From Candidatus Gottesmanbacteria bacterium (GTDB lineage: Bacteria > Patescibacteriota > Microgenomatia > UBA10105 > UBA927), in the NCBI GenBank assembly GCA_023245355.1, contig JAHFKN010000002.1, positions 136,460-200,459 on the forward strand: a stretch of 64,000 nucleotides of DNA, written 5' to 3'. Made by a program: the position numbers and the translations under genes. Shown here one piece after another: positions 17,425 through 34,271 of this stretch (its first letter is position 1; every line of letters begins with the position of its first letter). The notes under the pieces are model-generated. The model made no database searches. It worked only from the letters and a program-made list of their open reading frames with translations, and had not been told where the DNA came from.

Positions 17425-17429
17425 CCGAT

Positions 17430-18134
17430 ATGAATAAGGCAGGAATGTTGGTCGAGAAAATATATCATGACGCTGTATTTGCAGATCGTATCGCACCGGA
17501 TATGTTTCCCACGGGCGTTTCGTATACACAAGGGAAGTTTTTGTCCCGCGCCGTCTCGCGGTATACCCCGCAGGTCGTAATCGAACTGGGATTCCGGTAC
17601 GGGATTTCATCGCTGTGGATTCAGAGTGCCGCCCATCCGCCCCGCCGCCACATCATCGTGGATCCCTATCATCATATTCCGTCCCCCCCGAAACAAAGCA
17701 CGATTGATGATTTCATAAAAAAACAAAAGGGTGTGACTCTGGAAGATTCCATGACAAGCCAGGAATATTTAGCACGCGTAATGCAGTCGGGTACGAAGGT
17801 AGACTTCGTGTTTGTCGATGCCAGCCAGTGGTTTGACAGTGTCATGACGGATATGTTTTTTGTTTCCAGGGTGCTGCGGATACACGGAGTCGTTATCATA
17901 CGGAACCTGTGGAATCGCCCCGTCAGGAAAGCGGTCATGTTTTATCTTAAAAATCTGCCGTATAGTTTGGAGGGAGCCGCGCCGTGGAAAGAATGGGTGA
18001 TCAAGCATGTGCCGGTCATCGGTGAACTATTTCTGCGCATTTCCGTGCGGTCACTGGGCCTTTGCGTGTTACGGGTTACCGGTCCGGACGAGCGTATCTC
18101 AAAGCACATTTGGAATCATTTTATTCCGTTTTAG
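17430..18134 (+). CDS. class I SAM-dependent O-methyltransferase-like protein
   Basis: VIELGFRYGISSLWI (SAM motif I-like) and DFVFVDAS...GVVII resemble family-3 O-methyltransferases. Confidence 0.6.
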   Translation: MNKAGMLVEKIYHDAVFADRIAPDMFPTGVSYTQGKFLSRAVSRYTPQVVIELGFRYGISSLWIQSAAHPPRRHIIVDPYHHIPSPPKQSTIDDFIKKQKGVTLEDSMTSQEYLARVMQSGTKVDFVFVDASQWFDSVMTDMFFVSRVLRIHGVVIIRNLWNRPVRKAVMFYLKNLPYSLEGAAPWKEWVIKHVPVIGELFLRISVRSLGLCVLRVTGPDERISKHIWNHFIPF

Positions 18135-21495: not shown

Positions 21496-23199
21496 ATGCC
21501 CCCTAGGGTGTGCAGCTGCCCTATGAATATATCCGATGAATTGTTGCTTCAGATTATCACACAGGCCCGCATAGCCACAGAAGCAGAGGCAAAAGTGGTC
21601 ATGGATTTTGCGAAAGCCTCCGGAATTTCGCTTGCCGAGGCGCTCATTCAGAAAAATGTCATTACCGACGGCAAGTTGGGAAAACTAGTTGCCGAGCATT
21701 TCGGCGTTCCGTTTGTTAATCTGGCGGAAGTTACGATTCCTGAAGATGTCTACCGGGTGATACCGGATAAGTTTGCCAAAATTCATAAACTGCTGCCGTT
21801 TGCGCGTGATGCAACAGGGCTCAAGGTAGCAACTGCCGACCCCAAAGATGCGCAGGTTATTGCTTCCCTTGAGAAAAAAACGCGTCAGAAAATCATTATT
21901 CATTATGCGACGGAGCGGGATATCCGAAACGCGCTGCAGCTTCATAAGCGCGACCTGCAGACCGTTTTTGCGGACCTTATGAAGCGCTATAAACGCGAAG
22001 ATGAGGCACCGATTTCCGCAATCGTAGATTTGCTGCTCCACAGCGCCGTTGATGAAACGGCTTCCGACATTCACATCGAGCCGGAGGAATCCGATTCGCT
22101 GGTGCGGTACCGGATAGACGGCATTCTCCATGACGTATTACATTTTTCGAAAACCATGCATAGTCAGGTGGTGAGCCGTATCAAAGTGCTGGCGAATCTC
22201 CGTACGGACGAACATTCGGCTCCGCAGGACGGAAAAATCAGGATAAAGCATGATGAGCAGTCCGTAGATATCCGTATTTCCATCATCCCCATGATCGAGG
22301 GTGAAAAAATCGTCATGCGTCTTCTGGTGTCTCACTTCAAATTATTCAACTTCAGTGACCTGGGGATGGAAGAAGCGTCCGTTGCGAAAATTACGGCAGC
22401 GCTTCACAGGTCGTACGGCATGATTTTATCGACCGGGCCGACCGGCAGCGGAAAAACGACATCCATTTATGCGATGCTTAAAACGCTCAATGTCCGGGAG
22501 AAAAATATTACGACGATCGAAGATCCGGTGGAATACCGGATTAAGGGGGTAAACCAGATTCAGGTAAACTCGAAAACAAATCTGACGTTTGCAAACGGAC
22601 TGCGTTCCATTCTCCGGCAGGATCCGAATATTATATTTGTCGGGGAAATCCGCGATGCGGAAACGGCCGGCATTGCTATCAACGCTGCTTTGACAGGTCA
22701 TTTGGTCGTATCGACACTGCATACAAATGATGCTGCGACATCGCTTCCCCGGCTTACCGATATGCACGTTGAGCCGTTTTTGGTAGCTTCCAGTGTCAGC
22801 TTGATCGTCGCGCAGCGGTTGGTACGGAAAATTTGCGAATACTGCCGTATTTCAACAACCATTACCGAGCCGGAGCTGCAGAAAAGCCTGCCGGCGTCAG
22901 TCATCAGCAAACACTATATCCCGACCGGGGAAAACAAGGAAATCCGGGTATACAAAGGTCAGGGATGCAAAAACTGCAGATTTACCGGGTATTCAGGACG
23001 GGTAGGTATATTTGAGGTACTGGAGGTCAGTAAGGAAATACGCAAACTGATAACAGAACGGAAAGACAGTGACATGATCGTTGAACAGGCAATCGCAGAA
23101 GGCATGACAACTATGCTGGACGATGGTCTGATGAAAGTGTCCAAAGGCGTTACCACCATAGAGGAGATTCTCCGTGTGACCAGAGTAGAAACATTATGA
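21496..23199 (+). CDS. pilB: type IV pilus/T2SS assembly ATPase PilB/GspE
   Basis: T2SE N-terminal domain, Walker A GPTGSGKTT, and a C-terminal tetracysteine motif CEYC...CKNC. The start may be the ATG at 21523. Confidence 0.85.
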   Translation: MPPRVCSCPMNISDELLLQIITQARIATEAEAKVVMDFAKASGISLAEALIQKNVITDGKLGKLVAEHFGVPFVNLAEVTIPEDVYRVIPDKFAKIHKLLPFARDATGLKVATADPKDAQVIASLEKKTRQKIIIHYATERDIRNALQLHKRDLQTVFADLMKRYKREDEAPISAIVDLLLHSAVDETASDIHIEPEESDSLVRYRIDGILHDVLHFSKTMHSQVVSRIKVLANLRTDEHSAPQDGKIRIKHDEQSVDIRISIIPMIEGEKIVMRLLVSHFKLFNFSDLGMEEASVAKITAALHRSYGMILSTGPTGSGKTTSIYAMLKTLNVREKNITTIEDPVEYRIKGVNQIQVNSKTNLTFANGLRSILRQDPNIIFVGEIRDAETAGIAINAALTGHLVVSTLHTNDAATSLPRLTDMHVEPFLVASSVSLIVAQRLVRKICEYCRISTTITEPELQKSLPASVISKHYIPTGENKEIRVYKGQGCKNCRFTGYSGRVGIFEVLEVSKEIRKLITERKDSDMIVEQAIAEGMTTMLDDGLMKVSKGVTTIEEILRVTRVETL

Positions 23200-24248
23200 A
23201 ATCAGAAAACCTTACGCTTCCCAATGCGGAGAAATTGGGATTATTAAGTAATTTGTCGACCATGGTCAACGCAGGACTGACGCTTGCGGAAGCCGTCGAG
23301 TCACTGCTTGAAGATTCCGTCGGAAATTTAAAGCAGGTCTTAACGGGTATTCAGGCAGAAATTACGCAGGGTAAACCGCTGCATGCGGCGTTGTCGAAAT
23401 ACCCACGGATATTTGACCCGGTTACGGTTGCAATTATTAAGGCAGCGGAAGAATCCGGAACGATTGATGTCGTGCTTAAGGATGTAAAAAATACCGTAAA
23501 GAAAGATATAGAATTTTCGGATAAGATACGCTCGGCGTTAACGTACCCTGCCGTGATTCTCGTGGTATTTTTCGGCGTGCTGATTCTGTTGCTGACATTT
23601 GTCATTCCGAAAATTTCCGAAGTATTTTTGCGCCTGCGCGTACAGTTGCCGCTTCCGACGCGCATCCTTATGGCGCTATCCGATCTTATTCTTCACTATA
23701 CGGTGCCGACGCTTCTCGTGTTGGTCGGAACCATTGCGCTGCTTATTTTGTTGTATAAAAAACAGCGGAAGCTGTTTACCAATACGTTGTTAAACCTGCC
23801 GTATATTTCATCTATTGCCCGCCAAATCGACCTTACCAGGTTTTCGCGGAGCATGTATTTATTGCTCATTTCTGCAATCCCTCTCTATAGCGCGTTAGAG
23901 TTAACGCAGGCGGTCGCATTTAAGCGGGAAGTGCGGGAGGCAATCGCCCGCGCCCGCGAATATGTCGGGGGAGGCAAACGCCTGGCGGACGGTCTGCGCG
24001 GCCAAAAGACGATTCCCTCGCTTATGGTAAAAATTATAGAAGTCGGGGAGCGGAGCGGAAGTCTGGACAAATCCATGGAAGATTTATCGGAATACTTTGA
24101 TTATCAGGTCACGACGACGCTTCAATATATGATGACGCTTCTGGAACCGATTATTCTGGTGCTTGTCGGTGTCGTCGTGGGGGGAATGATGATGGCGATT
24201 ATCGCGCCTATTTATAATTTAATAGGCCAGGTCGGGGAATTCCATTAA
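23196..24248 (+). CDS. pilC: type IV pilus platform protein PilC/GspF
   Basis: GspF-type domains with three TM segments. Overlaps the pilB stop codon. Confidence 0.8.
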   Translation: MKSENLTLPNAEKLGLLSNLSTMVNAGLTLAEAVESLLEDSVGNLKQVLTGIQAEITQGKPLHAALSKYPRIFDPVTVAIIKAAEESGTIDVVLKDVKNTVKKDIEFSDKIRSALTYPAVILVVFFGVLILLLTFVIPKISEVFLRLRVQLPLPTRILMALSDLILHYTVPTLLVLVGTIALLILLYKKQRKLFTNTLLNLPYISSIARQIDLTRFSRSMYLLLISAIPLYSALELTQAVAFKREVREAIARAREYVGGGKRLADGLRGQKTIPSLMVKIIEVGERSGSLDKSMEDLSEYFDYQVTTTLQYMMTLLEPIILVLVGVVVGGMMMAIIAPIYNLIGQVGEFH

Positions 24249-24625
24249 TTTGCCGCTGTTGCCGCTTCTTTGACCATGCGGACCAAGTCCGGAGGCAGGA
24301 TATCTGCTTTCAGTATGTGGGTACGCGCTCCCAGCTCTTTTGCTTTATCCAATATCGGATCATGATCGAGATTGGTCAGAAGGAGAATCGGGCCGTTGGG
24401 TTGGGCTGGGGTTATTTCCTTGAGTTTGGTGAGCACCCCGAGCCCGTCCAGCTTCGGCATCATCACGTCAAGAAGTACTGCGGCAAATCCGCCCTGCATG
24501 AGTTTTTCGAGGCCTTGCTCTCCGTTTTCCGCAACGGTCACGTCAAAACCCTCGTTTTTCAGTATTTCTTCATAGAGGTCGCGGATAAATGCGTCATCGT
24601 CGACAATAAGAATCCGCTGGGTCAT
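24245..24625 (-). CDS. stand-alone response regulator receiver (CheY-like)
   Basis: ILIVDDD...D at VLLDVMMPKLDG...LLTN..D receiver motifs. Start set at MTQRILIV. Confidence 0.75.
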   Translation of the reverse strand: MTQRILIVDDDAFIRDLYEEILKNEGFDVTVAENGEQGLEKLMQGGFAAVLLDVMMPKLDGLGVLTKLKEITPAQPNGPILLLTNLDHDPILDKAKELGARTHILKADILPPDLVRMVKEAATAAN

Positions 24626-24702
24626 ACTTTGTATCTTACCCCACGTTTGGGATAAACTCAACGATAGCACAGTATTGTGCGTCGTTTATACCGGCTACAT
24701 TT

Positions 24703-26202
24703 ATGAACACATCATTTCTTCTTTTACACCCCGTGATATGGGCGAAATTGCTTCATACGAAACCGGAATCGTACTGGATGACCCGGGGCCGTAAAATGGC
24801 GGTCAAGTTATACACCGCTATGAACGTACGGGTGCCTGCGTACCGGCGCTTTCTTCAAAAAAAGGGCGTGCGCGCGCAGGTTGGGTTTACGTCCCTGCCG
24901 CTGACAGATAAGGACGCATATTTGAGAACATATCCGTTGTCCGATCTGTGCTGGGACGGCGACCTCGCTTCCCAACAGACGATAATTTCCGCGACAAGCG
25001 GGTCGACGGGTGAGCCGTTCTATTTTCCCAGAACCGCGGAGCAGGATTTGCAATACGCAGCAGTAGCAGAAATGTATTTGCGCACAAATTTTTCCGTTCA
25101 TAAAAAAACCACGCTCTATATTGTCGGGTGGGGCATGGGAATATGGATCGGCGGCGTGTTCAGCTATGCCGCTGTCCGTATCGTTGCCGAGCGGGGGAAG
25201 TATCCGATCAGCATCATTACCCCGGGAACGAATCAGGACGAGATTCTCAAGGCAATTGAGGCATTGGGACCGCTGTATGACCAGGTAGTTATCGGCGGGT
25301 ACCCCCCGATGATTAAAGATCTTATCGATGAAGGAAACAACCGCGGCATGGTGTGGAAAAAATATCATGTAAAATTTATTTTTTCCGCGGAAGGATTCAG
25401 CGAAGCATTCAGGAACTACGTGATACAACATGCCGGTTTACCGCACGTGCTCACGGACACGCTGAACCACTACGGCACCGTTGATTTAGGTACGATGGCT
25501 CATGAAACGCCGGTATCCGTACTGATACGCAGAATCGCATCCGATAAACCGGAATTAAATACCGCGCTGTTCGGTGATCCCCGCCGTCAACCGACGCTGG
25601 CTCAATATATACCTGAATTGTTTTATTTTGAGCAACAGGACGGCAGAATTATCTGTTCGGCAAGAGGCGGGTTGCCGCTTGTGCGGTATGATCTCAAGGA
25701 TACGGGAGGAGTGAAGTCGTTTGCACAAATCCGCAGCATTTGTAAGAAACACGGTGTTGATCTGTCGCAGGAAATTACACGCGCTCACATAGAGACAACT
25801 ATCTGGAACCTGCCGTTTGTGTATGTATTTGAGCGGAGTGATTTTACCGTCAAGCTTTCGGGAGCCAATATTTTCCCCGAAGAGGTGCGCCGCGCACTGG
25901 AGCATAAAACCGTCGCCTCTTTTGTAACAGGCAAATGTACGCTTGAAATCAATGTCGATACGCATATGGATCAGTATCTTAGTGTACATGTGGAACTTAA
26001 AAAATCCGTGCGTGCCCGAAGCACACTCACGCGTCTGGTGCGGGACAGGATTATTTCTGAACTGCTTCTTTCCAATTCGGAGTATGCGTACTTATATAAA
26101 AATCTTCCGGCAGAGCGCACGCGTCCGCACGTGACGTTATGGCCGTTTGCCGATACGCGGTTTTTCGGGGCACCGGGAAAACACCGCTGGGTAAGAAAAT
26201 AG
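24703..26202 (+). CDS. phenylacetate-CoA ligase-like adenylate-forming enzyme (PaaK/CapK/F390-synthetase family)
   Basis: ATSGSTGEPFYFP AMP-binding P-loop and overall PaaK-like length and architecture. Confidence 0.6.
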   Translation: MNTSFLLLHPVIWAKLLHTKPESYWMTRGRKMAVKLYTAMNVRVPAYRRFLQKKGVRAQVGFTSLPLTDKDAYLRTYPLSDLCWDGDLASQQTIISATSGSTGEPFYFPRTAEQDLQYAAVAEMYLRTNFSVHKKTTLYIVGWGMGIWIGGVFSYAAVRIVAERGKYPISIITPGTNQDEILKAIEALGPLYDQVVIGGYPPMIKDLIDEGNNRGMVWKKYHVKFIFSAEGFSEAFRNYVIQHAGLPHVLTDTLNHYGTVDLGTMAHETPVSVLIRRIASDKPELNTALFGDPRRQPTLAQYIPELFYFEQQDGRIICSARGGLPLVRYDLKDTGGVKSFAQIRSICKKHGVDLSQEITRAHIETTIWNLPFVYVFERSDFTVKLSGANIFPEEVRRALEHKTVASFVTGKCTLEINVDTHMDQYLSVHVELKKSVRARSTLTRLVRDRIISELLLSNSEYAYLYKNLPAERTRPHVTLWPFADTRFFGAPGKHRWVRK

Positions 26203-26242
26203 CTAACAGAGTTGATACAATAAATACAGGTCATTTCCTGCT

Positions 26243-27403
26243 ATGCCGGCACCAGTACCGTACGCTCCAGTTATCCTCATTTCTGATCGCAAAAAAGATC
26301 GGGAGATGCTGGCATCGTTAAAGAAAAATCCGCGTGTTACGGTTGTCGATGCGATAGAAGATCATCTGACGGAGCTATATGCCGTGCGGCACCCGGCATC
26401 TGTTATGACGGGGTTTAGGAAGCGTGATGTGGCCGCATTTATCGCGGCGTGTACAAAGTCTGAAGACATACATACATACGGGTCGTGGGCGTGGTACCCC
26501 TGGATATTTACGCTTATTCATTTTTTGCCGGAAGCCCTGCATACGGAGTTGCGCACGAGCAGAAACAGAAATCTTATTACCAAAGCGGAGCAGGATAGAT
26601 TTTACGCTTCCCATATCGGGGTGGCAGGATTGAGTGTCGGAAATTCCGTGGTCGCATCTCTTGTCCATACCGGAGGAGGTAAGTTTTTGCGGATTGCGGA
26701 CACGGACACGGTATCCGGATCAAATATCAACCGCGTGCGGGTGGGATTTGATATGGTCGGGGTCAGTAAATATGCACTTGTCGCCCGTGAAGCGTATCTT
26801 GTGAATCCGTACAGCGATATTTCGGTATACAAAGAAGGGATAACACCGGGCAATATTGAGCGTTTTCTCATGCATCCCAAGCCGCTTGATATTGTAATCG
26901 ATGAAATGGATACGCTCTATCTTAAGATACAGCTTCGGGTGCATGCGAGAAAACACAGGATCCCCGTCATCATGGCAGCAGATAACGGCGACGGAGTCGT
27001 CATTGATATTGAACGCTATGATCTTCATCCGGCGCTGCCGCTCATGCACGGGCAGGTACCCGAAAGGGAGCTTATGGATATAACGCCGAAGACGGACCGT
27101 GTGACGGCAGCCAGAATTATCAGCAGATGGGTGAAGCCCGATAATATTTCCGGCAGAATGAAGGATTCGCTTCTGGAGTTGGGGAAAACGCTCTATACAT
27201 GGCCGCAACTGGGTAACGCGGCTTTTATGGCGGGAGCAGTTCTTTCCTTTGTTGCCCGGAAAATTATTGTCGGAGATCCGGTTGTCGAGGGAAAGGTAGT
27301 TATTACGCCGGACGCATTTTTTGTACCGGGTTATACAGCGCGGTCCGCGATGAATGCGCGGAAACGCCATACTGCAGCATTTGTGAAAGCGATAGGATTA
27401 TAA
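26243..27403 (+). CDS. ThiF/MoeB/E1-like adenylyltransferase with an N-terminal extension
   Basis: IGVAGLSVGNSVVASLVHTGGGKFLRIADTDTVSGSNINR is the E1 Rossmann/nucleotide-binding motif. About 110 aa of unknown sequence precede it. Confidence 0.65.
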   Translation: MPAPVPYAPVILISDRKKDREMLASLKKNPRVTVVDAIEDHLTELYAVRHPASVMTGFRKRDVAAFIAACTKSEDIHTYGSWAWYPWIFTLIHFLPEALHTELRTSRNRNLITKAEQDRFYASHIGVAGLSVGNSVVASLVHTGGGKFLRIADTDTVSGSNINRVRVGFDMVGVSKYALVAREAYLVNPYSDISVYKEGITPGNIERFLMHPKPLDIVIDEMDTLYLKIQLRVHARKHRIPVIMAADNGDGVVIDIERYDLHPALPLMHGQVPERELMDITPKTDRVTAARIISRWVKPDNISGRMKDSLLELGKTLYTWPQLGNAAFMAGAVLSFVARKIIVGDPVVEGKVVITPDAFFVPGYTARSAMNARKRHTAAFVKAIGL

Positions 27404-27413
27404 GGAAACGGCT

Positions 27414-29636
27414 ATGGACTGGAACCTGCTCATATTATTATTCGGTGTACTCGCCAACAATATCCTTGGTTTGGTAGTGGCGCTTCGGAATCCCAAATCC
27501 GTTACGCATACCATGTTTTTTCTGCTGAGCGTCGATATCGCCATATGGTCCGTCGCAAATTATATTGCTATCAGCACCACCGACTTACTTGTCGCATTAT
27601 ACTGGACACGGATTGTCATGGCGCTTGCCGTGCCGCAGGCGATTTTATTTTTTTTGCTGCTCCATACGATCCCTTCTAAGCAGCTGTCACTGCCGGGTTG
27701 GATACTGGTTCCGCTTGTCTTAACCGGTCTTCTCGTGATGGGAATAAGCGTCAGTCCGTATTTGTTTACGTCGATTATTTTTGTTAACGGCGCACCGTCT
27801 CCCACGCCCGGTCCTGCCATGCCGCTGTTTGTCCTGGTTGCGGTGGGGTCGCTGATTGCGGGTGTTGTGACATTATGGAAACGGTTACGGGCCGCAAACG
27901 GGGTGTTACGGGTACAGCTGCAGATTATCGGCGTCGGCATCGTGCTCATGTTCGCGCTTATTTTCCTTTTCAACTTTATTTTTGTTGTCGTATTCAGTAA
28001 TTCTGCGTATGTGTCCGCAAGCCCGCTGTATACGCTTCCGTTTGTCGCGGCAACGGCGTATGCGATTATAAAACATAAATTTCTTGATATCAGACTTATT
28101 ATCGCCCGTGCGGTTTCGTATACGGTTGTCGTGTCGCTGTTTGCTATCATCTATGCCCTGCTGTTTGCACTGACGTCTTCTTTTCTCATATCGCCGCTCG
28201 TCGATCCCAAATTTATCGCCATATCGACTGCGGCTGCCATGCTGATGCTTGTCACATTTCCGTTCGTCAAACGCAGCATAGAAAAACTGACTGACGCGGT
28301 ATTTTATAAGGATAGATACGATACGTCCGCCGTGTTGTACCATATCGCGCAGATTATGGCCCGTACGCTCCGGCTTGAGGAGTTGGCGCATCAGTTAGTA
28401 GTGAGCATGAACCGGGAATTTCAGACGGAACACGCCAGCATCATGCTGATTAACCACGGAAAAATCGTTTCTATGTATACGGACGGATACACACAACCCC
28501 CCGAAGTGCAGGAACACACCGCGTCATATATTTCGGCATTCGGAAAAGTGCGGTTGCGCGACGATGAAAAAGATCCGCAGATTGCCGCATTTTTCGCGTC
28601 TCTGGACGCGTCGATTATTCTTCCGCTTGAGACGGGACAGCATGTTATCGGGTTGCTGTGCATCGGACATAAACGGTCCGGTGAACTGTTCAGTGACGAG
28701 GACATAAGCACGATGGAAATTATCGCATCAGAAGCGGCAGTAGCGATGGAAAATTCGCTGTCCTATGAGGAAATCCGGCGGTTTAATATAACGCTGGAGG
28801 ATGAAGTCAGGAACGCAACGGAGGATTTGCGACATGCAAATGAAAAGCTGGAACAGCTCGATAAACTCAAAGATGAGTTTGTATCATTGGCATCTCATGA
28901 ATTGCGGACTCCGCTCACATCGATCCGGTCGTATTTGTGGATGGCATTGTCGGGCACAGGGGGCGCGTTATCCGAAAAGCAGAAATATTATCTGGACCGT
29001 TCGTACATATCAACCGAGCGGCTGATCAAGCTGGTAAATGACATGCTCAATATTTCAAGAATAGAATCCGGGCGTTTGGCAGTGCAGTTTTCGAGGATCG
29101 ATGTCGCATCACTTATAAAAGACGTGTTGGCCGAGGTGCAGCCGAAAATTGATGAGCAGGGACTCACGTGTAAAGTGCTGCTGCCCGCTCAACAAATTTC
29201 AGATGTTATCGCGGATACTGATAAGATAAAAGAGGTCATGATCAATCTGTTGGGAAATGCGGTAAAGTTCACTCCCCGCGAAGGGACGATCACAGTTACT
29301 GCTTCCGAAATACGGGATCAGATAAAGATATCCGTGTCCGATACCGGCACGGGATTTAATCCGAGCGACGGGGCGAAACTGTTTATGAAATTCAGTACAT
29401 TACACGCGGCTCCTGTCGGGCGTTCGCAGGGATTTCAAAGTACGGGATTGGGGTTATATATCAGTAAGTCGATTATTGCCATGCACGGCGGGGTTATGGA
29501 GGCGGTGTCCCCGGGAGAGGGTAAGGGAGCAACGTTCAGTTTTACCCTGCCGATGTATACCGCAGCAAAACGCGAGATGATGCAGCGGAAATACTCAGCA
29601 GACGGGCTGGCAATTATTCACAGTTCCATACAATAA
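27414..29636 (+). CDS. sensor histidine kinase (multi-TM, GAF-like, HisKA, HATPase)
   Basis: About 7 N-terminal TM helices, H-box SHELRTPL, N-box NLLGNAVKF, G-boxes DTGTGF and GLGLYISK. Confidence 0.8.
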   Translation: MDWNLLILLFGVLANNILGLVVALRNPKSVTHTMFFLLSVDIAIWSVANYIAISTTDLLVALYWTRIVMALAVPQAILFFLLLHTIPSKQLSLPGWILVPLVLTGLLVMGISVSPYLFTSIIFVNGAPSPTPGPAMPLFVLVAVGSLIAGVVTLWKRLRAANGVLRVQLQIIGVGIVLMFALIFLFNFIFVVVFSNSAYVSASPLYTLPFVAATAYAIIKHKFLDIRLIIARAVSYTVVVSLFAIIYALLFALTSSFLISPLVDPKFIAISTAAAMLMLVTFPFVKRSIEKLTDAVFYKDRYDTSAVLYHIAQIMARTLRLEELAHQLVVSMNREFQTEHASIMLINHGKIVSMYTDGYTQPPEVQEHTASYISAFGKVRLRDDEKDPQIAAFFASLDASIILPLETGQHVIGLLCIGHKRSGELFSDEDISTMEIIASEAAVAMENSLSYEEIRRFNITLEDEVRNATEDLRHANEKLEQLDKLKDEFVSLASHELRTPLTSIRSYLWMALSGTGGALSEKQKYYLDRSYISTERLIKLVNDMLNISRIESGRLAVQFSRIDVASLIKDVLAEVQPKIDEQGLTCKVLLPAQQISDVIADTDKIKEVMINLLGNAVKFTPREGTITVTASEIRDQIKISVSDTGTGFNPSDGAKLFMKFSTLHAAPVGRSQGFQSTGLGLYISKSIIAMHGGVMEAVSPGEGKGATFSFTLPMYTAAKREMMQRKYSADGLAIIHSSIQ

Positions 29637-29637
29637 T

Positions 29638-30147
29638 ATGCATACCGGAATATATTCTGATCGTGTTGATTCCTCCGCGCGCGGATTTACCCTTGTTGAG
29701 GTTGTGATTGCCGGCGCGCTTATGAGCGCTATGTTTTTATTATCGACGCAGTCGTTATTTCACGGAAAACGAAGTGCGTCACTCGATCAGACGGCAAGCG
29801 GTGTGGTTATGGATTTGCGTGAGCAGCAAATCCGCGCAATGCAGGGAACAGTGCCCACTCCGGGATCCGTCGTCGATTATTCCGTACGGTTTGAATCGGA
29901 TCGGTATATTCTGTATCCGGGCTCGGTTTATGACAGCACGAGTACCCAAAATAAGGTTATGCTCCTTGATCCTTCCATGCAGTTTACCGGCATCACATTC
30001 CCCGGAAATACCATTACATTTGCCCGGGGAAGCGGGGTCGTCAGAGGATACATTCCCGGTTCGAACACGGTGATTCTCACTGAAACAGGATTAGGAAAAG
30101 CATCGACGCTTGAGATAAATGAAGCGGGGGTTATTTTTGTTCGGTGA
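29638..30147 (+). CDS. prepilin-type N-terminal cleavage/methylation domain protein (minor pilin)
   Basis: SARG-FTLVEVVIAGALM class III signal peptide. Confidence 0.7.
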   Translation: MHTGIYSDRVDSSARGFTLVEVVIAGALMSAMFLLSTQSLFHGKRSASLDQTASGVVMDLREQQIRAMQGTVPTPGSVVDYSVRFESDRYILYPGSVYDSTSTQNKVMLLDPSMQFTGITFPGNTITFARGSGVVRGYIPGSNTVILTETGLGKASTLEINEAGVIFVR

Positions 30148-32159
30148 TATCTATGATACGCATTAATCATCAGCGCGGGCAAACAATCATTGAGCTGCTT
30201 TTGGCGATGGGATTTTCCCTGGTGTTTTTCCCGGCGCTTTTTACCATGTTTTACGTATCGCGCGAAGGAAAAGCACAGCAGATCGAACGGACGACGGCCG
30301 TGCCGTTGCTGATCGAAGCACAGGAGGCACTGCGCAATATCCGTGAGGCAGGATGGACGCAGATTGCCTCATATAATAACAATGTCGTATATCACCCGTC
30401 GCTTACCGGGACGCAATGGTCGTTAGCTGCAGGCGCTGAATCTGTCGGCAGGTTTACCAGGAGTGTCGAATTCTCTCAGGTGCTGCGGGATCAAAACGGC
30501 GCCATCGTACCTTCGGGCGGCACAGCAGATCCGTCAACCCGCAAAGCAACGGTCACCGTATCATGGCAAACGCCGCTGCCTACGTCGGTCACGGCTGTCG
30601 TGTATCTTACGCGGCATACGAATCTGGTAGTTACGGATACGACGGAAGCTCAATTCCTCCTGGGAGATACGACTGCGCACACAAAAGTGATCGCATTGGC
30701 CGGCGGGGAAGTGGTATTGGGTTCTACGGGCGGATTCGGTGACTGGTGTCAGCCGTCGCTTACTATCGCTACGGTTGATTTGCCCAAAAGCGGAGTGGCA
30801 AATGCCATAGGAGCCATACAGGGAAAGCTCGCCGCCGGAACGGGAGAGAATGCGTCGGGTGTTTCATTTGCCAGTGTGCTGGTAACCAATCCTGATTTTC
30901 CGATAAATCCCACGGCTACGGTGTCAGGAACGTTTGACGGATATAAAACAAACGACGTATTTACGGAGTCAGATCATGCGTATCTTGCGACTGATACGAA
31001 CATTAAGGAAGTTGAAATAATTTCGCTGGCCGGCACGGACAGTAATGGTAAATACAGCGAAGCCGGTTATTTTAATGCGCCCGGCAACGGAAATGCTGAG
31101 GGAGTCGTCACATCGGGTACTGTCGGGTATATGGTCGGAGGCACCAAGCTATATTCGTTTGATCTGTCATCCAAAACCGGTTCCCGGCCGATTTTAGATC
31201 CGGACGGCGTCACGTTGCCGGCCACAGGAAAGAAGTTGGTTGTCGTCGGTACGCGTGCGTTTATCACGACCAATAGCACTACTGCACAGCTGGTGATCGT
31301 CGACATAAGTAACCCGTCGGATCTTCGTATTATCGACCAGATCGGGTTGCCGGCACTGGGAGGAACGTCAATATACGTCAATGCGTCAGGAAGCAGGGCA
31401 TATATCACGACGGAACAATCGGCAAGCCAGCGGGAGTTTTTTATTATCAACACGGAGAGCGCCTCTTTGCAGTATAAGCAGGTGCTGGGATCCTATGATA
31501 CAAACGGCATGAATCCGAACGGTGTCATCGTGGTATCCGGTCCCCGGGCAATAGTTGTCGGTAAAGGAGCAGAAGAATATCAGGTTATAGATGTTACCAA
31601 TGAGAGCGCAAATCCGTTACCCCGCTGCGGAGGCATTCAGATTGATACGGGGGCAAACGGAATTGATACGGTGCTGGAACCGAATGGCAGGGCATATTCG
31701 TATGTTATAACGGGAGACGCGACAAGCGAGTTGAAAATCATAGAAGGCGGTCCGGGGGCAAATGGCCGGGATTATTTCTTATCGGGAACGTTCGATTCGC
31801 AGATTTTTGATGCGACGAACATTGCTACCGGAAGTACGGAAGCAGCATTCAACAGAATAAGCGCATCGATCGTGACGCCGTCTTCGCAGACAAGTGTGAA
31901 TCTTCAGTTTGCCGCAGCAGATCCCGTCGGAGGAAGTTGTACGAACGCCGCGTTTGTTTTTGTCGGTCCGGACGGGACGTCTAATACTTCCTACACGTCA
32001 TCGGACGGTACGACGATATCCGGGGTACTGCCGTTTTCCAATGATGGGGTGGGGTATGAAAATCCTGCACGGTGTTTCCGGTACCGGGCGCGTTTTGTTA
32101 CCCCTGATGCGACGCTTACTCCGATAGTTAATGATGTCAGTATTTCATTATCACCATGA
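30144..32159 (+). CDS. large prepilin-like protein (possible tip/adhesin pseudopilin)
   Basis: N-terminal GQTIIELLLAMGF prepilin motif followed by about 640 aa of Thr/Gly-rich beta-rich sequence. Confidence 0.6.
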   Translation: MISMIRINHQRGQTIIELLLAMGFSLVFFPALFTMFYVSREGKAQQIERTTAVPLLIEAQEALRNIREAGWTQIASYNNNVVYHPSLTGTQWSLAAGAESVGRFTRSVEFSQVLRDQNGAIVPSGGTADPSTRKATVTVSWQTPLPTSVTAVVYLTRHTNLVVTDTTEAQFLLGDTTAHTKVIALAGGEVVLGSTGGFGDWCQPSLTIATVDLPKSGVANAIGAIQGKLAAGTGENASGVSFASVLVTNPDFPINPTATVSGTFDGYKTNDVFTESDHAYLATDTNIKEVEIISLAGTDSNGKYSEAGYFNAPGNGNAEGVVTSGTVGYMVGGTKLYSFDLSSKTGSRPILDPDGVTLPATGKKLVVVGTRAFITTNSTTAQLVIVDISNPSDLRIIDQIGLPALGGTSIYVNASGSRAYITTEQSASQREFFIINTESASLQYKQVLGSYDTNGMNPNGVIVVSGPRAIVVGKGAEEYQVIDVTNESANPLPRCGGIQIDTGANGIDTVLEPNGRAYSYVITGDATSELKIIEGGPGANGRDYFLSGTFDSQIFDATNIATGSTEAAFNRISASIVTPSSQTSVNLQFAAADPVGGSCTNAAFVFVGPDGTSNTSYTSSDGTTISGVLPFSNDGVGYENPARCFRYRARFVTPDATLTPIVNDVSISLSP

Positions 32160-32653
32160 AAAAAAATCAGGGATTCTCACTCATTGAATTAATTATCTAT
32201 ATGGGGCTTACCGCCACATTGATTTCGGTGATGAGCCAGGTGTTTATTGCCACGCTTGGGTTGCGGTTGGAATCTGAAAACACGACCAGCGTGCAGCAGG
32301 ATGGGCGGTTTATTATGGCAAAAATTAACTACGATGTCCGCCGTGCTAAAACGATCGTATCTCCTTTGTGGGGTGAAGCAAGTTCGTCTATGACGCTTAT
32401 TATTCCTGAATTGGGGTCAGATCATACGTATCAGTATGCATGGAGCGGAAATACATTGACACTGACCGACGGAGCGAACGCATCGTTGTTAAACAGCGAC
32501 CGCACGGTTATTACGAATTTTTCCGTGACACATGTGGGGCAGAGTGCAACTGCAGCCGGCATGATATCGCTATCTTTGGGGTTATCGGGAAATACACAGG
32601 TGACATCAGGGCAGCAGTCACTGGATTTACACAGCACGGTAGGCCAACGATAA
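32156..32653 (+). CDS. prepilin-like minor pilin
   Basis: KNQGFSLIELIIYMGLTATL class III signal. Confidence 0.65.
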   Translation: MKKNQGFSLIELIIYMGLTATLISVMSQVFIATLGLRLESENTTSVQQDGRFIMAKINYDVRRAKTIVSPLWGEASSSMTLIIPELGSDHTYQYAWSGNTLTLTDGANASLLNSDRTVITNFSVTHVGQSATAAGMISLSLGLSGNTQVTSGQQSLDLHSTVGQR

Positions 32654-32654
32654 T

Positions 32655-33047
32655 ATGAAACGAAACGATACGCACTATATGTCCGGTCAGGTGCTGATTG
32701 CCATGCTCTACATTATGGTGATCGGCATATTGATTACGACGGGAGCCGTCTATGCACTGATCAGTAATACGCAGTCAACGACAGCGTATGAGGCGGGTTC
32801 ACTTGCGGGCGCGGCCGCAGAAAGCGGAATAGAAAACGCGCTGCTTCGGTATATCCGTAACCCGGCATATACCGGGGAGACGCTTGTGTTGGACGGAGGA
32901 CAGTCAGCCACGATTACCGTAAGTACGGCTTCCGGCGTCACGATCGTCTCCTCAGGAGCGTACGGGAAGGCGCTCAAACAAGTTGAAGTAAAAGTACATT
33001 ATAATGGAAGTACGCTTATGATTGATTCCTGGAAAGATCTTCCGTAA
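32655..33047 (+). CDS. PilX-like minor pilin (no canonical G-F cleavage motif)
   Basis: N-terminal hydrophobic helix SGQVLIAMLYIMVIGILI in pilus-locus context. Confidence 0.45.
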   Translation: MKRNDTHYMSGQVLIAMLYIMVIGILITTGAVYALISNTQSTTAYEAGSLAGAAAESGIENALLRYIRNPAYTGETLVLDGGQSATITVSTASGVTIVSSGAYGKALKQVEVKVHYNGSTLMIDSWKDLP

Positions 33048-33058
33048 GCTATAATACT

Positions 33059-33721
33059 ATGTCTGCCCTGGCTGTTTTACGATCAGAAGCGCTGTATCTT
33101 TATTACCCGGACCATACTACCCCAATCGGGGGTACGTTACCGAAGATTGCTGTATCGGACATGGAGGTATTGAGCGAAGAGGCGCTGACAATATCCGTAG
33201 CAAAATTTATTCCGGTTATTCCGCATGCGCCCGTTCCTACTGTTTTAGTATTAAGCGACGAACTTTGTTTTACCCAGCCGTTTAAAGAGGGAGACAAAGA
33301 AGACGCAGAAAAAGCCCTGGTAGCGCTTACGCCGTTTACCCATGTTGCGACAGCATCACTGACCGTGCAGAACCAACGGTATTTTATCGCCACGAATCAG
33401 GATTATTATGAGGCAGTTGTCCGTTCTCTTGCCGCACGGGGCCATCAGGTGACACTCGTTGTTCCGTGGATATGTCTGGTCCGGTCCGGAATGACAAAAG
33501 GCGAACTGGACATGGTGACGGTGAAGCGTGTATTCGACAATCTCTCCTCATTGAGGATGTGTATATTTCCGCTTGCGGTTGAAAACCGCGAAGCCCCCGT
33601 TTCATCCGCGTCCGTGCCGGAAAAGCCCAAGTCAAAACTTCCGATCGGGTGGATTATATTCGGAGTCGGAGCACTGGCCTACGGGTTTGTTATGTACTGG
33701 TTTTTTATCCGCGGAGCGTGA
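33059..33721 (+). CDS. hypothetical pilus-locus protein with C-terminal TM anchor
   Basis: 220 aa with a C-terminal TM helix (WIIFGVGALAYGFVMYWFF). Position matches the PilM/N/O-like assembly components. Confidence 0.45.
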   Translation: MSALAVLRSEALYLYYPDHTTPIGGTLPKIAVSDMEVLSEEALTISVAKFIPVIPHAPVPTVLVLSDELCFTQPFKEGDKEDAEKALVALTPFTHVATASLTVQNQRYFIATNQDYYEAVVRSLAARGHQVTLVVPWICLVRSGMTKGELDMVTVKRVFDNLSSLRMCIFPLAVENREAPVSSASVPEKPKSKLPIGWIIFGVGALAYGFVMYWFFIRGA

Positions 33722-33812
33722 GTCGTGGGCGTTCAGGCTTGACAAGCATGGGAATATTCCCATATGCTGATTATGAATGAATTTTCATGTCCTTAGGAGG
33801 GGACAGCTGCCT

Positions 33813-34271
33813 ATGAAATATAAAAAAGGATTTACGCTCATCGAGCTGCTAGTAGTTATCGGTATTCTTGCTATTTTGCTGGCAATCACATTGATTGCTA
33901 TTAATCCGGCGCGTCAGTTCGGACAGGCAAATAACACGAAGCGCCGAAGTGATGTGTTACAGGTGTTAAATGCGGTACATCAGTATGTTGCAGAAAATCA
34001 GGGACAACTTCCTGCAGAAGTAAGCGGGTTGGTTGCAGCAACGCCGACGTTGTTCAACTCAACGAATTTCCCGAACTTGTGCGGACAGTTGATGACGAAT
34101 TATTTGCCGGCCTTGCCGACGGATCCGTCGCTTAACCTGGCAAATATCACTGACTGTGCAGCAGTCGGAGGTTGGAATACCGGATATAACATATCCAGGG
34201 ACGCAGCGAACCGGGTGACGGTGAGCGCGCCTACAACCGATAATGCCGCGGTTATTTCGGTAACCAGGTAA
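33813..34271 (+). CDS. type IV pilin (major pilin-like)
   Basis: MKYKKG-FTLIELLVVIGILAILLAI is a textbook class III signal. RBS TAGGAGGGG. The track ORF starts 36 nt upstream. Confidence 0.8.
   Translation: MKYKKGFTLIELLVVIGILAILLAITLIAINPARQFGQANNTKRRSDVLQVLNAVHQYVAENQGQLPAEVSGLVAATPTLFNSTNFPNLCGQLMTNYLPALPTDPSLNLANITDCAAVGGWNTGYNISRDAANRVTVSAPTTDNAAVISVTR

Follow-up and report, generated by a model that had tools for sequence, protein, structure and literature searches.

Organization of the locus

In the window (the whole stretch of DNA analysed, 64 kb), the gene order is pilB, pilC, a minus-strand receiver, a ligase, a ThiF/E1 enzyme, a histidine kinase and the pilin genes (Table 1). All the features that a sequence-only reading of this DNA had named are present where that reading placed them, including a kinase stop codon that abuts the first pseudopilin, with a spacing of 1 nt to the pilin-like gene at 29638. 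Neither a flavin oxidase nor a dehydrogenase or aminotransferase was found anywhere in the 64 kb of the window. A sigma-70-like match was seen at 33739-33768, just 5' of the last pilin gene, in a scan that as a whole performed no better than shuffled controls.

Table 1. Genes and features of the locus, in nucleotide positions of the window.
Feature	Position	Strand	Basis or remark
pilB, type IV pilus ATPase	21496-23199	+	Pfam T2SSE, E 2e-126; upstream context only
pilC, pilus platform protein	23196-24248	+	Pfam T2SSF, E 2e-46; upstream context only
Receiver-only response regulator, CheY-like	24245-24670	-	Pfam Response_reg, E 5e-22
PaaK-fold adenylate-forming (ANL) ligase, 499 aa	24703-26202	+	Fold match; without Pfam match
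Phosphate-binding loop of the ligase, T98-SGSTGEPFYFP-109	24994-25029	+	From translation
ThiF/E1-like adenylating enzyme, Rv1355c (TrzS) type, 386 aa	26243-27403	+	NCBIfam NF005901
N-terminal domain of the E1, about 105 aa	26243-26557	+	N-terminus of Rv1355c profile
7TM-GAF sensor histidine kinase, 740 aa	27414-29636	+	Pfam domains
Six co-directional genes 3' of the kinase	29638-34271	+	Gaps of -4 to 55 nt; downstream context only
Pilin-like gene, N_methyl prepilin motif	29638-30147	+	Motif below Pfam cut-off
671-aa protein with LVIVD repeat	30144-32159	+	Downstream of kinase
Pilin gene, N_methyl prepilin motif	32156-32653	+	Above Pfam cut-off
Two small proteins of no assigned type	32655-33047, 33059-33721	+	
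Pilin gene, N_methyl prepilin motif	33777-34271	+	Above Pfam cut-off

The PaaK-fold ligase

The ligase had been called PaaK-like, a description that suits its fold but not its sequence. Its AlphaFold (AF2) model (pLDDT 87) matches PaaK1 (2y27) in Foldseek with E 1.6e-22, TM 0.65/0.75 and 16% identity, and the structural neighbors are, in order, PaaK1, BT_0428, and then the amide ligase ClxA and HCL. However, the protein scores only 39.8 bits against the PaaK equivalog profile, whose cutoff is 646, and has no match in Pfam. Like PaaK1, it has the two-domain ANL fold (TM 0.65-0.75) with the core adenylation motifs intact; unlike PaaK, to which it is about 15% identical, it is about 70 residues longer. 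Among 17 diverse homologues the loop residues S99, G100, G103, P105, Y107, F108 and P109 are invariant, as are Y257 G258, D333, R378 D380 and K493; these positions (of the loop, S99 G100 G103 P105) are read from the alignment as the probable ANL core motifs. A homologue search found 1823 proteins, and the matches listed are at least 48% identical and spread across CPR lineages (at least 49% in the genome survey described below). The ligase is therefore a member of a CPR-wide family separate from true phenylacetate-CoA ligases.

PaaK, BT_0428, ClxA, NatL2 (amide/ester ligases) and Ind3 constitute the PaaK-fold comparison set for this protein. ClxA (Foldseek E 2e-15), described as an amide ligase of benzoxazole biosynthesis, is among the nearest structural neighbors and provides an example of this fold making amides on the way to a heterocycle. 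In indolmycin biosynthesis, Ind3 carries out the ATP-dependent coupling of a Trp-derived hydroxy acid and builds an oxazolinone; we take Ind3 to be phenylacetate-CoA-ligase-like (PaaK-like). As these cases illustrate, PaaK-fold ligases can condense their substrates without CoA.

The ThiF/E1-like enzyme

In the E1-like enzyme, a Pfam ThiF domain (residues 106-247) is preceded by about 105 additional residues. The protein matches the NCBIfam model NF005901 ("Rv1355c family") with 299 bits (E 7e-89, profile positions 11-339 of 722), the runner-up ThiF profile scoring 62.6 bits, and aligns end to end with a PGAP-named Rv1355c family protein at 33% identity. The N-terminal domain, which had been regarded as an extra one, is indeed present, but even in isolation it aligns with the N-terminal end of the Rv1355c profile (positions 11-90; 47 bits, E 9.5e-13) and is therefore a standard domain of the family and not a lineage-specific addition. 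The AF2 model (pLDDT 90) has a ThiF/MoeB/AclA fold, with the N-terminal part forming an alpha/beta domain. Invariant residues are G129/S131/G133, D153/D155, N161/N163/R164, K176, E221/D223 and D247/G249/D250.

Rv1355c is TrzS, which performs the ATP-dependent cyclization of N-acyl-Trp and then an O2-dependent desaturation, and OxzB and TyzB/TyzC carry out the same chemistry on N-acyl-Tyr/Phe (PMC12856293, PMC10404671, bioRxiv 10.1101/2020.06.11.147165). In the Rv1355c/TrzS type, a ThiF-like cyclase and a flavin oxidase yield N-acyl-amino-acid oxazolones. The TrzS variant D217A has no cyclase activity. The invariant Asp of the ThiF adenylation motif, D223 in the window, is taken here as the equivalent of TrzS D217, on the assumption that the residue numbering corresponds. 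Family membership, N-terminal domain and invariant adenylation Asp are thus common to the window enzyme and the oxazolone systems, and by homology the former would be the cyclase half of an oxazolone synthetase, as a stand-alone protein without the flavin oxidase.

The fold is also that of enzymes activating the C-terminus of a peptide or protein, either in RiPP maturation (MccB, PaaA) or in ThiF/MoeB/ubiquitin-like systems, so that the E1 could act on a small peptide or on a beta-grasp protein. The structural matches include MccB and PaaA, whose N-terminal domains bind peptides, and the N-terminal domain of the window enzyme has no assigned function. Like these enzymes, it has a Rossmann-type adenylation domain with the ATP-binding residues. 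Unlike them, it has no catalytic Cys, CxxC zinc site or rhodanese domain, and no Ubl or precursor peptide gene lies nearby in the window. The family alignment contains no conserved Cys or CxxC motif, no small ORF ending in Gly-Gly exists between 20 and 36 kb of the window, and the cassette contains neither a conserved small ORF nor a precursor gene at 80 surveyed loci. The window enzyme therefore lacks the features needed by a protein-activating E1, a role that is unsupported. Moreover, the bit score is five times higher for the small-molecule cyclase family Rv1355c than for any ThiF/MoeB model, and the best profile match among solved structures is TcdA (CsdL), the tRNA t6A cyclodehydratase (61.7 bits). 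Activation of a peptide or protein is extremely improbable. TcdA is itself ThiF-like and uses ATP for a cyclodehydration that yields an oxazolone-type ring, as is proposed here for the E1. However, the window enzyme scores 45 bits against a TcdA equivalog cutoff of 304, and TcdA acts on tRNA, has no N-terminal domain and is linked to no ligase, oxidase or kinase.

A cassette conserved across CPR bacteria

The survey comprised 80 GTDB species-representative genomes bearing the ligase, all titled CPR/Patescibacteria save for MAGs titled just "bacterium" or, apparently wrongly, "Gammaproteobacteria". Ligase, E1, kinase and receiver form a cassette kept in hundreds of CPR bacteria. The E1 adjoins the ligase in 79/80 species, an orthologous 7TM kinase is adjacent in 70/80 and a nitroreductase-type flavin oxidase in 61/80; in the 46 loci whose flanks are complete, the corresponding numbers are 46, 44 and 35. 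A Leu/Phe/Trp-type amino-acid dehydrogenase, nearest to Trp and Leu dehydrogenases and not to Glu dehydrogenase, is adjacent in 47/80 species and a class-I aminotransferase in 22/80. Both together occur in none of the 80 loci, a mutual exclusion that indicates non-orthologous displacement of one amino-acid/2-oxo-acid step. Neither is present in 11 loci, of which six are on short contigs or have the ligase at a contig edge and three belong to the window's clade.

The full cassette begins with a divergent receiver (optional), the dehydrogenase or the aminotransferase, and the PaaK-fold ligase, and continues with the Rv1355c/TrzS-type ThiF cyclase, the nitroreductase-superfamily flavin oxidase, an optional alpha/beta hydrolase, the 7TM kinase and, in some cases, a receiver. 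The window's four-gene unit is a reduced copy, without oxidase, dehydrogenase or aminotransferase. CPR genomes are dense and co-directional, so adjacency is weaker evidence in them than in other bacteria; this is offset by conservation across permuted gene orders and by fusions, which tie every enzyme pair of the cassette. Ligase and E1 are fused in one locus (a single 889-aa protein), E1 and oxidase in seven species-representative loci and in three metagenome loci near-identical to one of them, oxidase and hydrolase in four loci, and E1 and hydrolase in one. The CPR oxidase matches the C-terminal half of the Rv1355c profile, and an E1-oxidase fusion covers profile positions 11-645 of 722 with 381 bits. 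The pairing of two carboxylate-activating enzymes, which the sequence-only reading had pointed out as unusual, is thus real and selected, given its adjacency in nearly all species and its fusion.

These genes might also serve ordinary metabolism, the dehydrogenase or transaminase and an aryl-acid-CoA ligase acting in salvage or catabolism of hydrophobic or aromatic amino acids, with a kinase that merely regulates the operon. CPR bacteria rely on salvage, most cassettes include the dehydrogenase or aminotransferase, and the solved structures nearest to the ligase are those of aryl-acetate CoA ligases (PaaK1, BT_0428). However, this explanation, which we regard as quite unlikely, does not account for the near-universal E1, the oxazolone-synthetase-type oxidase or the fusions of ligase with E1, E1 with oxidase and oxidase with hydrolase, and the window's clade retains ligase and E1 without a dehydrogenase or transaminase in 64 kb. 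Nor is the ligase a bona fide PaaK in a paa operon: no such operon appears at any locus, and no recognisable paa gene, acyltransferase-like gene or further conserved gene recurs in or beside the cassette in the 80 loci, whose neighbors were read without a dedicated search for paa or 2-oxoacid:ferredoxin oxidoreductase families.

The pilus setting

The ligase/E1 pair had been taken to be linked to pili. This link does not extend beyond one lineage: pilB/pilC lie near the cassette in only 3/80 species representatives, all of them the closest relatives of the window, and elsewhere its neighbors are ribosomal, chaperone, tRNA-synthetase or glycolytic genes. Co-occurrence of the enzymes with pilins does exist in the window's lineage, where the same synteny as in the window is found in three species representatives and two metagenome contigs. 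It starts at dnaG-rpoD-pilB-pilC, as far as the sequence covers these genes (one locus has no detected pilB), and extends to bipA where the locus gets that far. With this synteny kept at ligase identities down to 57-58%, chance juxtaposition is rejected. The unit between pilC and the minor pilins is read as a stable lineage-specific placement and not as a sign of pilin chemistry.

Modification of pilins had been suggested as a function, the ligase and/or the E1 attaching an acyl or aminoacyl group to the downstream pilins or pseudopilins. This could proceed through a reactive azlactone that the E1 would produce when no oxidase is there. Saturated azlactones acylate amines, TrzS releases its saturated cyclized intermediate once desaturation is blocked, and the oxidase is missing in exactly the window's clade. 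In that clade the kinase stop and the pilin-like gene belong to a tightly packed array, with synteny kept in six genomes or contigs, and pilin-motif genes occur within 10 kb in 14/80 loci as a raw count. However, enzymes at least 48% identical across CPR are not beside pilB/pilC in about 95% of species; therefore, these proteins cannot be pilus-specific in general. In addition, five loci of further clades also lack the oxidase yet are not near pili, and besides the missing catalytic Cys in the E1, no pilin of the window ends in Gly-Gly. Pilin modification is not supported by these data and seems very unlikely.

The kinase and the receiver

The kinase is composed of HisKA_7TM (residues 8-226), GAF (321-446), HisKA (486-553) and HATPase_c (601-714) domains. 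The 7TM sensor region is common to the window kinase and 68 of the 71 cassette-adjacent kinases of other species, and the GAF region to 32 of the 71; only one of four non-adjacent kinases has this 7TM region. The kinase is an orthologous and conserved partner of the cassette.

The acceptor Asp of the receiver stands in the context "LLDVMMP". A receiver gene (REC) is found in the cassette zone of 35/80 loci, and a divergent receiver 5' of the ligase or of the dehydrogenase is also seen in further CPR lineages. The receiver thus belongs to the cassette and not to the pilus genes, and together with the frequency of the kinase this bears out the earlier grouping of both signaling proteins with the two enzymes. 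Gene callers give receivers of 131 aa in the syntenic relatives, so the true start may be downstream of the GTG at 24670.

A candidate oxazolone-type pathway

Among known systems, the cassette comes closest to the enzymes that make small oxazolones, namely OxzA/OxzB of Pseudoalteromonas rubra and, from Mycobacterium tuberculosis, TyzA/TyzB/TyzC and TrzA/TrzS (Rv1356c/Rv1355c). Most CPR relatives encode a nitroreductase-superfamily flavin oxidase either next to the cyclase or fused to it, just as in TrzS and OxzB. In contrast to the known systems, the cassette has no acyltransferase of the OxzA/TyzA/TrzA type and carries a PaaK-fold ATP-dependent ligase in that position; it adds a dehydrogenase or aminotransferase, an alpha/beta hydrolase, a 7TM kinase and a receiver, and the window unit has no oxidase. 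CPR are not mentioned in two oxazolone/ThiF papers, and Actinomycetota make up more than half of the TrzS subcluster in the TrzS paper.

The interpretation that we favor, with about as much confidence as doubt, is that ligase and E1 would act one directly after the other in a small-molecule pathway of the oxazolone type, with a dedicated kinase and receiver coupled to it. From the gene content we infer that the probable product is a small heterocycle of the oxazolone class, derived from an N-acyl-amino acid. First, an amino acid and its 2-oxo acid would be interconverted. The ligase would then adenylate a carboxylic acid and couple it to an amino acid, taking the role that an acyl-CoA-dependent acyltransferase (OxzA/TyzA/TrzA) has in the known systems. 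Afterwards, the ThiF enzyme would adenylate the alpha-carboxylate of the acyl-amino acid and close the 5(4H)-oxazolone ring, which the flavin oxidase, where present, would desaturate and a hydrolase may open or transfer. The window's lineage would encode only the second and third steps locally.

Without oxidase and dehydrogenase or aminotransferase, the window therefore fails two defining features of known oxazolone systems. With no oxidase, the pathway would be expected to stop at a saturated azlactone that is labile to hydrolysis, an odd end product. It is just as possible that the ligase is a CoA ligase feeding an unlinked enzyme. Outside the CPR, the nearest ligase homologue (Nonomuraea, 36% identity) is encoded after a kinase and a regulator, with no E1 there, so the tie between ligase and signaling may be independent of oxazolone chemistry.

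A small acyl-adenylate signal sensed by the kinase had also been proposed. A small molecule acting with the kinase fits better than pilin modification, but a free acyl-adenylate is disfavored because homology to the Rv1355c/TrzS type points to cyclization of an N-acyl-amino acid to an oxazolone. The same chemistry could instead supply an antimicrobial or a lipid with a structural or protective function in the envelope, the kinase controlling expression only. Tyrazolones are M. tuberculosis lipids tied to oxidative-stress phenotypes, and antimicrobial activity of related N-acyl tyrosines has been described. We consider this alternative unlikely, since so strict a coupling to a single family of orthologous 7TM kinases, kept across permuted gene orders, is more typical of dedicated sensing or regulation. 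Kinase adjacency by itself does not demonstrate that the product is sensed, and this coupling alone cannot separate sensing of the product from regulation of the operon.

In the oxazolone-type pathway favored here, the 7TM kinase and the receiver-only regulator would act as product sensor or pathway regulator. The oxazolone papers' authors point to the likeness of oxazolones to signaling molecules. As in pairs of autoinducer synthase and sensor kinase, a functional analogy only, biosynthetic genes are co-inherited with an orthologous kinase and receiver; unlike in those pairs, the output is a receiver-only protein without a DNA-binding domain, and binding of the product by the kinase is putative. 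A small-molecule signal is plausible, and in the window's lineage the placement beside the pilins would possibly couple the kinase output to the pilus genes.

Gene organization

A divergent receiver, a PaaK-like ligase, an E1/ThiF-like enzyme and a histidine kinase had been described, in the sequence-only reading, between the pilB-pilC genes and the pilin genes, and this description matches the ORFs, domains and coordinates present in the window.

Coordinates of the cassette genes and of the adjacent pilus genes in the window
Feature	Position	Remarks
pilB	21496-23199	upstream of cassette
pilC	23196-24248	upstream of cassette
Receiver-only response regulator	24245-24670	minus strand (opposite to pilB/pilC)
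Ligase-like ORF, 499 aa	24703-26202	carries T98-SGSTGEPFYFP-109
ThiF/E1-like ORF, 386 aa	26243-27403	
Histidine kinase, 740 aa	27414-29636	7TM region, GAF, HisKA, HATPase_c

Six genes follow the kinase in a tight array, and the first of them starts 1 nt past its stop codon. The prepilin N-methylation motif is present in three of these six genes (in the first of them below the Pfam cut-off), and the array is closed by bipA/typA on the other strand. The adjacency of kinase and pilin genes is by itself weak evidence, since the genome is densely co-directional: the cumulative GC skew climbs steadily over 1-50 kb of the window, and dnaG and rpoD lie within the same array. In a scan of 21-34.6 kb, promoter-like matches were not above the counts found in shuffled sequences, and terminator-like matches showed a modest excess (25 versus 14.9 in shuffles, sd 4.1), so that these counts do not delimit operons.

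With a HisKA and HATPase_c kinase (Pfam) and a receiver that retains the acceptor Asp in its sequence, the pair has the components of a two-component system, and phosphotransfer between both proteins is predicted. The longest ORF of the receiver begins at a GTG codon situated 32 nt from the ligase start codon (24625-24702). Gene callers give 131 aa for this protein in syntenic relatives, versus 141 aa in the longest ORF, and there is an internal Met (MTQRILIVDD) 15 codons in. The start is therefore likely to be located further in, and the divergent intergenic region is probably about 60-80 nt long.

Other regions of the window are also worth describing. A 671-aa protein (30144-32159) located among the pilin-like genes shows a weak match to the LVIVD repeat and a hydrophobic N-terminal segment, GQTIIELLLAMG, read as prepilin-like; it is kept in the syntenic relatives, where it has 664-668 aa, and could be a tip protein or a large minor pilin. 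Directly upstream of dnaG, at 15877-18134, are genes for a 515-aa multi-pass glycosyltransferase of the PMT_2 type and for a Methyltransf_24 protein, and the order methyltransferase-(NUDIX)-dnaG-rpoD-pilB is found again in L094, one of these relatives. A second, conventional two-component system (45405-47479) is composed of an OmpR-type regulator (REC and Trans_reg_C) and a HAMP-HisKA-HATPase kinase devoid of the 7TM sensor of the cassette kinase. At 56000-64000 the GC content is 0.34-0.41, down from about 0.49, and the sign of the GC skew flips; this segment, which contains genes for an Mrr-type restriction endonuclease (59502-60626) and a member of the "Beta protein" family (61800-62963), may be a foreign or defense island.

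The ligase

The ligase has no match in Pfam, and its profile E-value to the PaaK sequences of the PDB is just 2e-8. The AlphaFold model of the protein (pLDDT 87) was compared with PDB structures by Foldseek. The top match was PaaK1 (2y27; E 1.6e-22, TM 0.65/0.75, 16% identity), followed by BT_0428, the amide ligase ClxA and a 2-hydroxyisobutyryl-CoA ligase, in this order. The residues read as ANL core motifs, including the C-terminal Lys K493, show no variation across 17 diverse homologues (alignment A1). Model and motifs thus point to a PaaK-type two-domain ANL fold provided with adenylation motifs. The name "PaaK-like" holds for the fold, as indicated by the 2y27 match, but not for the family, since the score against the PaaK equivalog TIGR02155 is 39.8 bits and the cutoff is 646.3.

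A true PaaK acting in a paa pathway was rejected. Among about 90 loci, most of them labeled for cassette genes only, no conserved neighbors beyond the cassette genes were found, and no paa-type family appears among the precomputed Pfam labels of those loci that carry them. The ligase family comprises 1823 matches; those listed are at least 48% identical (at least 49% in the genome survey) and are distributed across lineages of the Candidate Phyla Radiation (CPR).

There is precedent for PaaK-fold ligases that form amide or ester bonds without CoA. ClxA has been described as an amide ligase in benzoxazole biosynthesis, NatL2 takes part in the benzoxazole pathway of nataxazole, in which an unstable ester is an intermediate, and Ind3 carries out the ATP-dependent coupling of a tryptophan-derived hydroxy acid that builds the oxazolinone of indolmycin. 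Ind3 is reportedly phenylacetate-CoA-ligase-like.

The ThiF-like enzyme

The E1 of the window matches the NCBIfam model NF005901 ("Rv1355c family") with 299 bits (E 7e-89, profile positions 11-339 of 722). As the protein consists of the ThiF half alone, this score stays under the cutoff of 476, which applies to the full length. Among ordinary ThiF/MoeB/TcdA-type models, the best one reaches 62.6 bits. The 110-aa N-terminal domain, previously regarded as extra, is in fact the normal N-terminal domain of the Rv1355c family, since by itself it matches the N-terminus of NF005901 with 47 bits. Moreover, E1 can be aligned end to end (33% identity) with a protein of a Mycolicibacterium plasmid named by PGAP as an Rv1355c family member.

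Invariant positions among E1 homologues (alignment A2) include the glycine loop, the D-x-D and N-x-N-R motifs, K176 and D223, the aspartate of DEMD. This alignment contains no conserved Cys column, and the sole Cys of the protein, C70, is not conserved. The model of E1 (pLDDT 90) has a ThiF/MoeB-type core whose top structural match is AclA of Tenacibaculum, a protein for which no description was found in the literature searched; the nearest solved structure by sequence profile is the cyclodehydratase TcdA. Family membership and the intact adenylation motif indicate that E1 is a ThiF-like cyclase belonging to the clade of TrzS, OxzB and TyzB, with a predicted activity. An orthologue of TcdA was ruled out (45 bits versus a cutoff of 304), and a function as a MoeB/ThiF enzyme of sulfur-carrier activation was rejected.

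The activation of a RiPP precursor or of a ubiquitin-like protein (Ubl) by E1 is highly improbable. E1 does not have the catalytic or zinc-binding Cys residues characteristic of ubiquitin-like protein E1s, no small ORFs ending in Gly-Gly (candidates for a beta-grasp Ubl substrate) occur in the 20-36 kb region of the window, and there is no conserved substrate gene.

Distribution of the cassette in CPR genomes

A scan of one genome per GTDB species detected a ligase relative in 332 species. Neighborhoods were counted in the best 80 loci of these species, with ORFs labeled by BLAST in a zone extending from three genes upstream of the ligase to four genes downstream. According to record titles, the 80 loci belong to CPR/Patescibacteria, among them Gottesman-, Roizman-, Magasanik-, Doudna-, Woese- and Woykebacteria, Paceibacterota and Saccharimonadales, with the exception of several MAGs named only "bacterium" and many named "uncultured Gammaproteobacteria". 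The title "uncultured Gammaproteobacteria bacterium" is carried, for instance, by the MAGs of loci L008, L010, L012, L018 and L023, among others; it looks wrong, since the gene content and closest relatives of those MAGs are those of Patescibacteria.

E1 accompanies the ligase in 79 of the 80 loci, the histidine kinase in 70 and a nitroreductase-type protein (the flavin oxidase) in 61. Less frequent are an ELFV-family dehydrogenase (47), the receiver (35) and an alpha/beta hydrolase (17). This set holds together although gene order differs among lineages, and several fusions can be found: E1 with the oxidase, the oxidase with the hydrolase, E1 with the hydrolase, and the ligase with E1. The Roizmanbacteria locus L001 is an example of a full cassette (dehydrogenase-ligase-E1/oxidase-hydrolase). 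Loci without the dehydrogenase carry a class-I/II aminotransferase divergently upstream (Pfam E 1.4e-64); both enzymes are strictly exclusive, 47 loci having only the dehydrogenase, 22 only the aminotransferase and none both. Trp and Leu dehydrogenases, rather than Glu dehydrogenase, are the closest relatives of the cassette dehydrogenase. The 7TM sensor region of the window kinase is shared by 68 of the 71 cassette-adjacent kinases.

The oxidase is missing in other lineages that keep ligase, E1 and kinase, represented by loci L032/L034/L039 and L058/L068/L071. Since these lineages too have lost the oxidase and retained the three genes, the minimal conserved core consists of the ligase, E1 and the 7TM kinase. 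L088, a further locus of the oxidase-less group, shows the order dehydrogenase-ligase-E1-kinase without pili. Outside the clade of the window the cassette neighbors vary, and include genes for ribosomal proteins, dnaK/dnaJ/grpE, tRNA synthetases and glycolytic genes.

An elaborated cassette with two ligase-E1 pairs is present in a 456-kb Patescibacteria contig (GCA_034520665.1, L089:7020-17644). In order, it comprises a Rossmann-type protein of 461 aa, a first ligase-E1 pair (518 and 387 aa), an ORF of 62 aa, a SAM methyltransferase, a second ligase-E1 pair (517 and 360 aa) and then a 7TM-GAF kinase and a receiver. The Rossmann-type protein has a precomputed match to PF27054 ("Beta_methylindole_red_C") that was not reproduced by Pfam/NCBIfam scans. 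By analogy, this putative combination of reductase, methyltransferase and PaaK-fold ligase recalls the Ind2/Ind1/Ind3 steps of indolmycin biosynthesis.

The pilus-embedded variant

The window and five syntenic relatives (L008, L009 (Gottesmanbacteria), L010, L094 and L096; ligase identity 57-67%) have the order pilC-REC(-)-ligase-E1-kinase in common, and in all of them the downstream gene array comes next. Where the locus extends far enough, it is flanked by dnaG, rpoD and pilB upstream and by bipA(-) downstream, except that no pilB was detected in L010. At the locus, this clade has no oxidase, dehydrogenase, aminotransferase or hydrolase. No homologues of the oxidase (tblastn), dehydrogenase or aminotransferase were found anywhere in the 64-kb window, and none of the oxidase-less clade contigs appears among the best 120 of 856 oxidase protein matches. 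The next relative, L095 (54% ligase identity), carries the general cassette and no pili. The enzymes of the clade are under clear constraint, because all catalytic motifs are intact at 57-72% identity. The reduced, pilus-embedded cassette is one stable lineage-specific variant.

It had been proposed that the ligase and E1 could modify pilins. The neighborhood survey does not support a general link between their orthologues and pili: the pilin motif was found in six of the 80 loci, PilC in three and PilB in two, the loci with PilB/PilC being the closest relatives of the window only, so that the consistent co-occurrence expected of a type IV pilus accessory is lacking. This is the main correction for the window: the location in the pilus operon is a lineage-specific arrangement and not evidence for pilin chemistry. 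Pilin modification is thus disfavored, since the same enzymes lie away from pilB/pilC in about 95% of species and E1 does not have the features required for protein substrates. Within the clade of the window it is still conceivable, because an E1 without oxidase could produce a reactive acyl donor. The two-component system of the cassette may be co-expressed with the pilus in this clade, or may regulate it.

Relationship to oxazolone synthetases

TrzS, which is Rv1355c, converts N-acyl-tryptophan into N-acyl tryptazolone by ATP-dependent cyclization and subsequent O2-dependent desaturation, and OxzB and TyzB/TyzC carry out the same chemistry on N-acyl-Tyr/Phe; each of the three systems obtains its N-acyl amino acid from an acyl-CoA-dependent acyltransferase, OxzA, TyzA or TrzA (PMC12856293, PMC10404671, bioRxiv 10.1101/2020.06.11.147165, PMC12596934). 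These oxazolone synthetases, constituted by a ThiF cyclase and a flavin oxidase, were discovered only in 2020-2025, and their authors consider the physiological role of oxazolones a major unresolved question.

In CPR loci, the nitroreductase-type protein aligns with the C-terminal half of the Rv1355c profile, NF005901, and also matches the Acg family of FMN oxidoreductases, and a CPR fusion of E1 and oxidase covers positions 11-645 of NF005901 with 381 bits. Therefore, the cassette holds a bona fide relative of oxazolone synthetase. However, while in the OxzAB, TyzACB and TrzAS systems the flavin oxidase is fused or adjacent and an AHL-synthase/GNAT-like N-acyl amino acid synthase is also adjacent, the window lacks both of these defining features. 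No OxzA/TyzA/TrzA-type acyltransferase is present in the window or recurrent in the 80 loci, in which the PaaK-fold ligase is the only conserved extra enzyme at that position. The CPR cassette also differs from the known systems in its additional conserved partners and its dedicated sensor kinase. The sequence comparisons argue for an oxazolone-synthetase-related system, whose form in the window is reduced and inserted in a pilus operon.

No description of the cassette was found in the literature, the coverage of which was incomplete, so a prior description is possible. Two oxazolone/ThiF papers do not mention Patescibacteria; one of them mentions neither a ligase nor a kinase partner, and the other no PaaK-type enzyme.

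Some homologues outside CPR bacteria have particular neighbors. A plasmid of Streptomyces sp. NBC_01426 (L090:7926-9700) encodes a stand-alone Rv1355c-type ThiF, 37% identical to the E1 of the window and with the same N-terminal domain, whose gene overlaps that of a GNAT family protein downstream; the annotation shows no flavin oxidase in the vicinity. This oxidase-less pair of ThiF and acyltransferase, a single case, suggests a possible parallel to the ligase and ThiF of the window. In the plasmid collection, the closest ligase homologue outside CPR bacteria comes from Nonomuraea gerenzanensis (NZ_LT559118.1, L092:7735-11407), with 36% identity along 96% of the query. It is directly downstream of genes for a HisKA_3 histidine kinase and a NarL/LuxR-type response regulator, with no E1 or oxidase nearby, so that in this single case the link between ligase and two-component system may extend beyond CPR bacteria. 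The ligase homologue of Gemmatirosa has no informative neighbors.

Proposed pathway and signaling role

From the observed gene content, co-inheritance, fusions, family assignments and intact active-site motifs, a pathway can be proposed for the cassette, each step of it putative. The dehydrogenase or the aminotransferase would interconvert a hydrophobic or aromatic amino acid and its 2-oxo acid. The ligase would adenylate a carboxylic acid, by which the amino acid would be acylated, and E1 would then adenylate the alpha-carboxylate, closing the oxazolone ring. The oxidase would desaturate this ring and the hydrolase would open or transfer it. This proposed sequence of steps is in line with the main gene order and with the fusion pairs. 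The window would encode only the acylation and cyclization steps, and its product could be an N-acyl amino acid or the corresponding saturated, reactive azlactone, barring an oxidase gene outside the window. A purely metabolic role of the cassette is improbable, since it leaves E1, the oxidase and the fusions unexplained.

The kinase and the receiver-only regulator could be either sensors of the product or controllers of the pathway. A tentative and rather doubtful reading is that the cassette is a CPR-wide small-molecule signaling module. An oxazolone-class autoinducer would be made from amino-acid-derived acids by the ligase, the TrzS-type ThiF cyclase and, usually, the flavin oxidase; its receptor would be the 7TM(-GAF) kinase inherited together with these enzymes, with output through the receiver-only regulator. 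In the lineage of the window this module would be wired into the pilus operon, and the signal could control pilus-dependent behavior, such as host attachment, motility or DNA uptake. An oxazolone-type product with a non-signaling role, as a lipid or an antimicrobial, is a serious alternative. If the signaling module exists as proposed, it would provide the first receptor and the first physiological role for oxazolones, as well as the first chemical communication system described in CPR bacteria in the literature searched.

CPR bacteria have genomes of roughly 1 Mb and almost no biosynthesis. An oxazolone-related enzyme set, tied to one family of 7TM sensor kinases and with a different ATP-dependent acylating enzyme, is kept in at least 332 of their species-level genomes. 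The cassette makes it testable whether an oxazolone-type molecule is linked to a dedicated receptor kinase, and points to an unrecognized, apparently important function in CPR bacteria.
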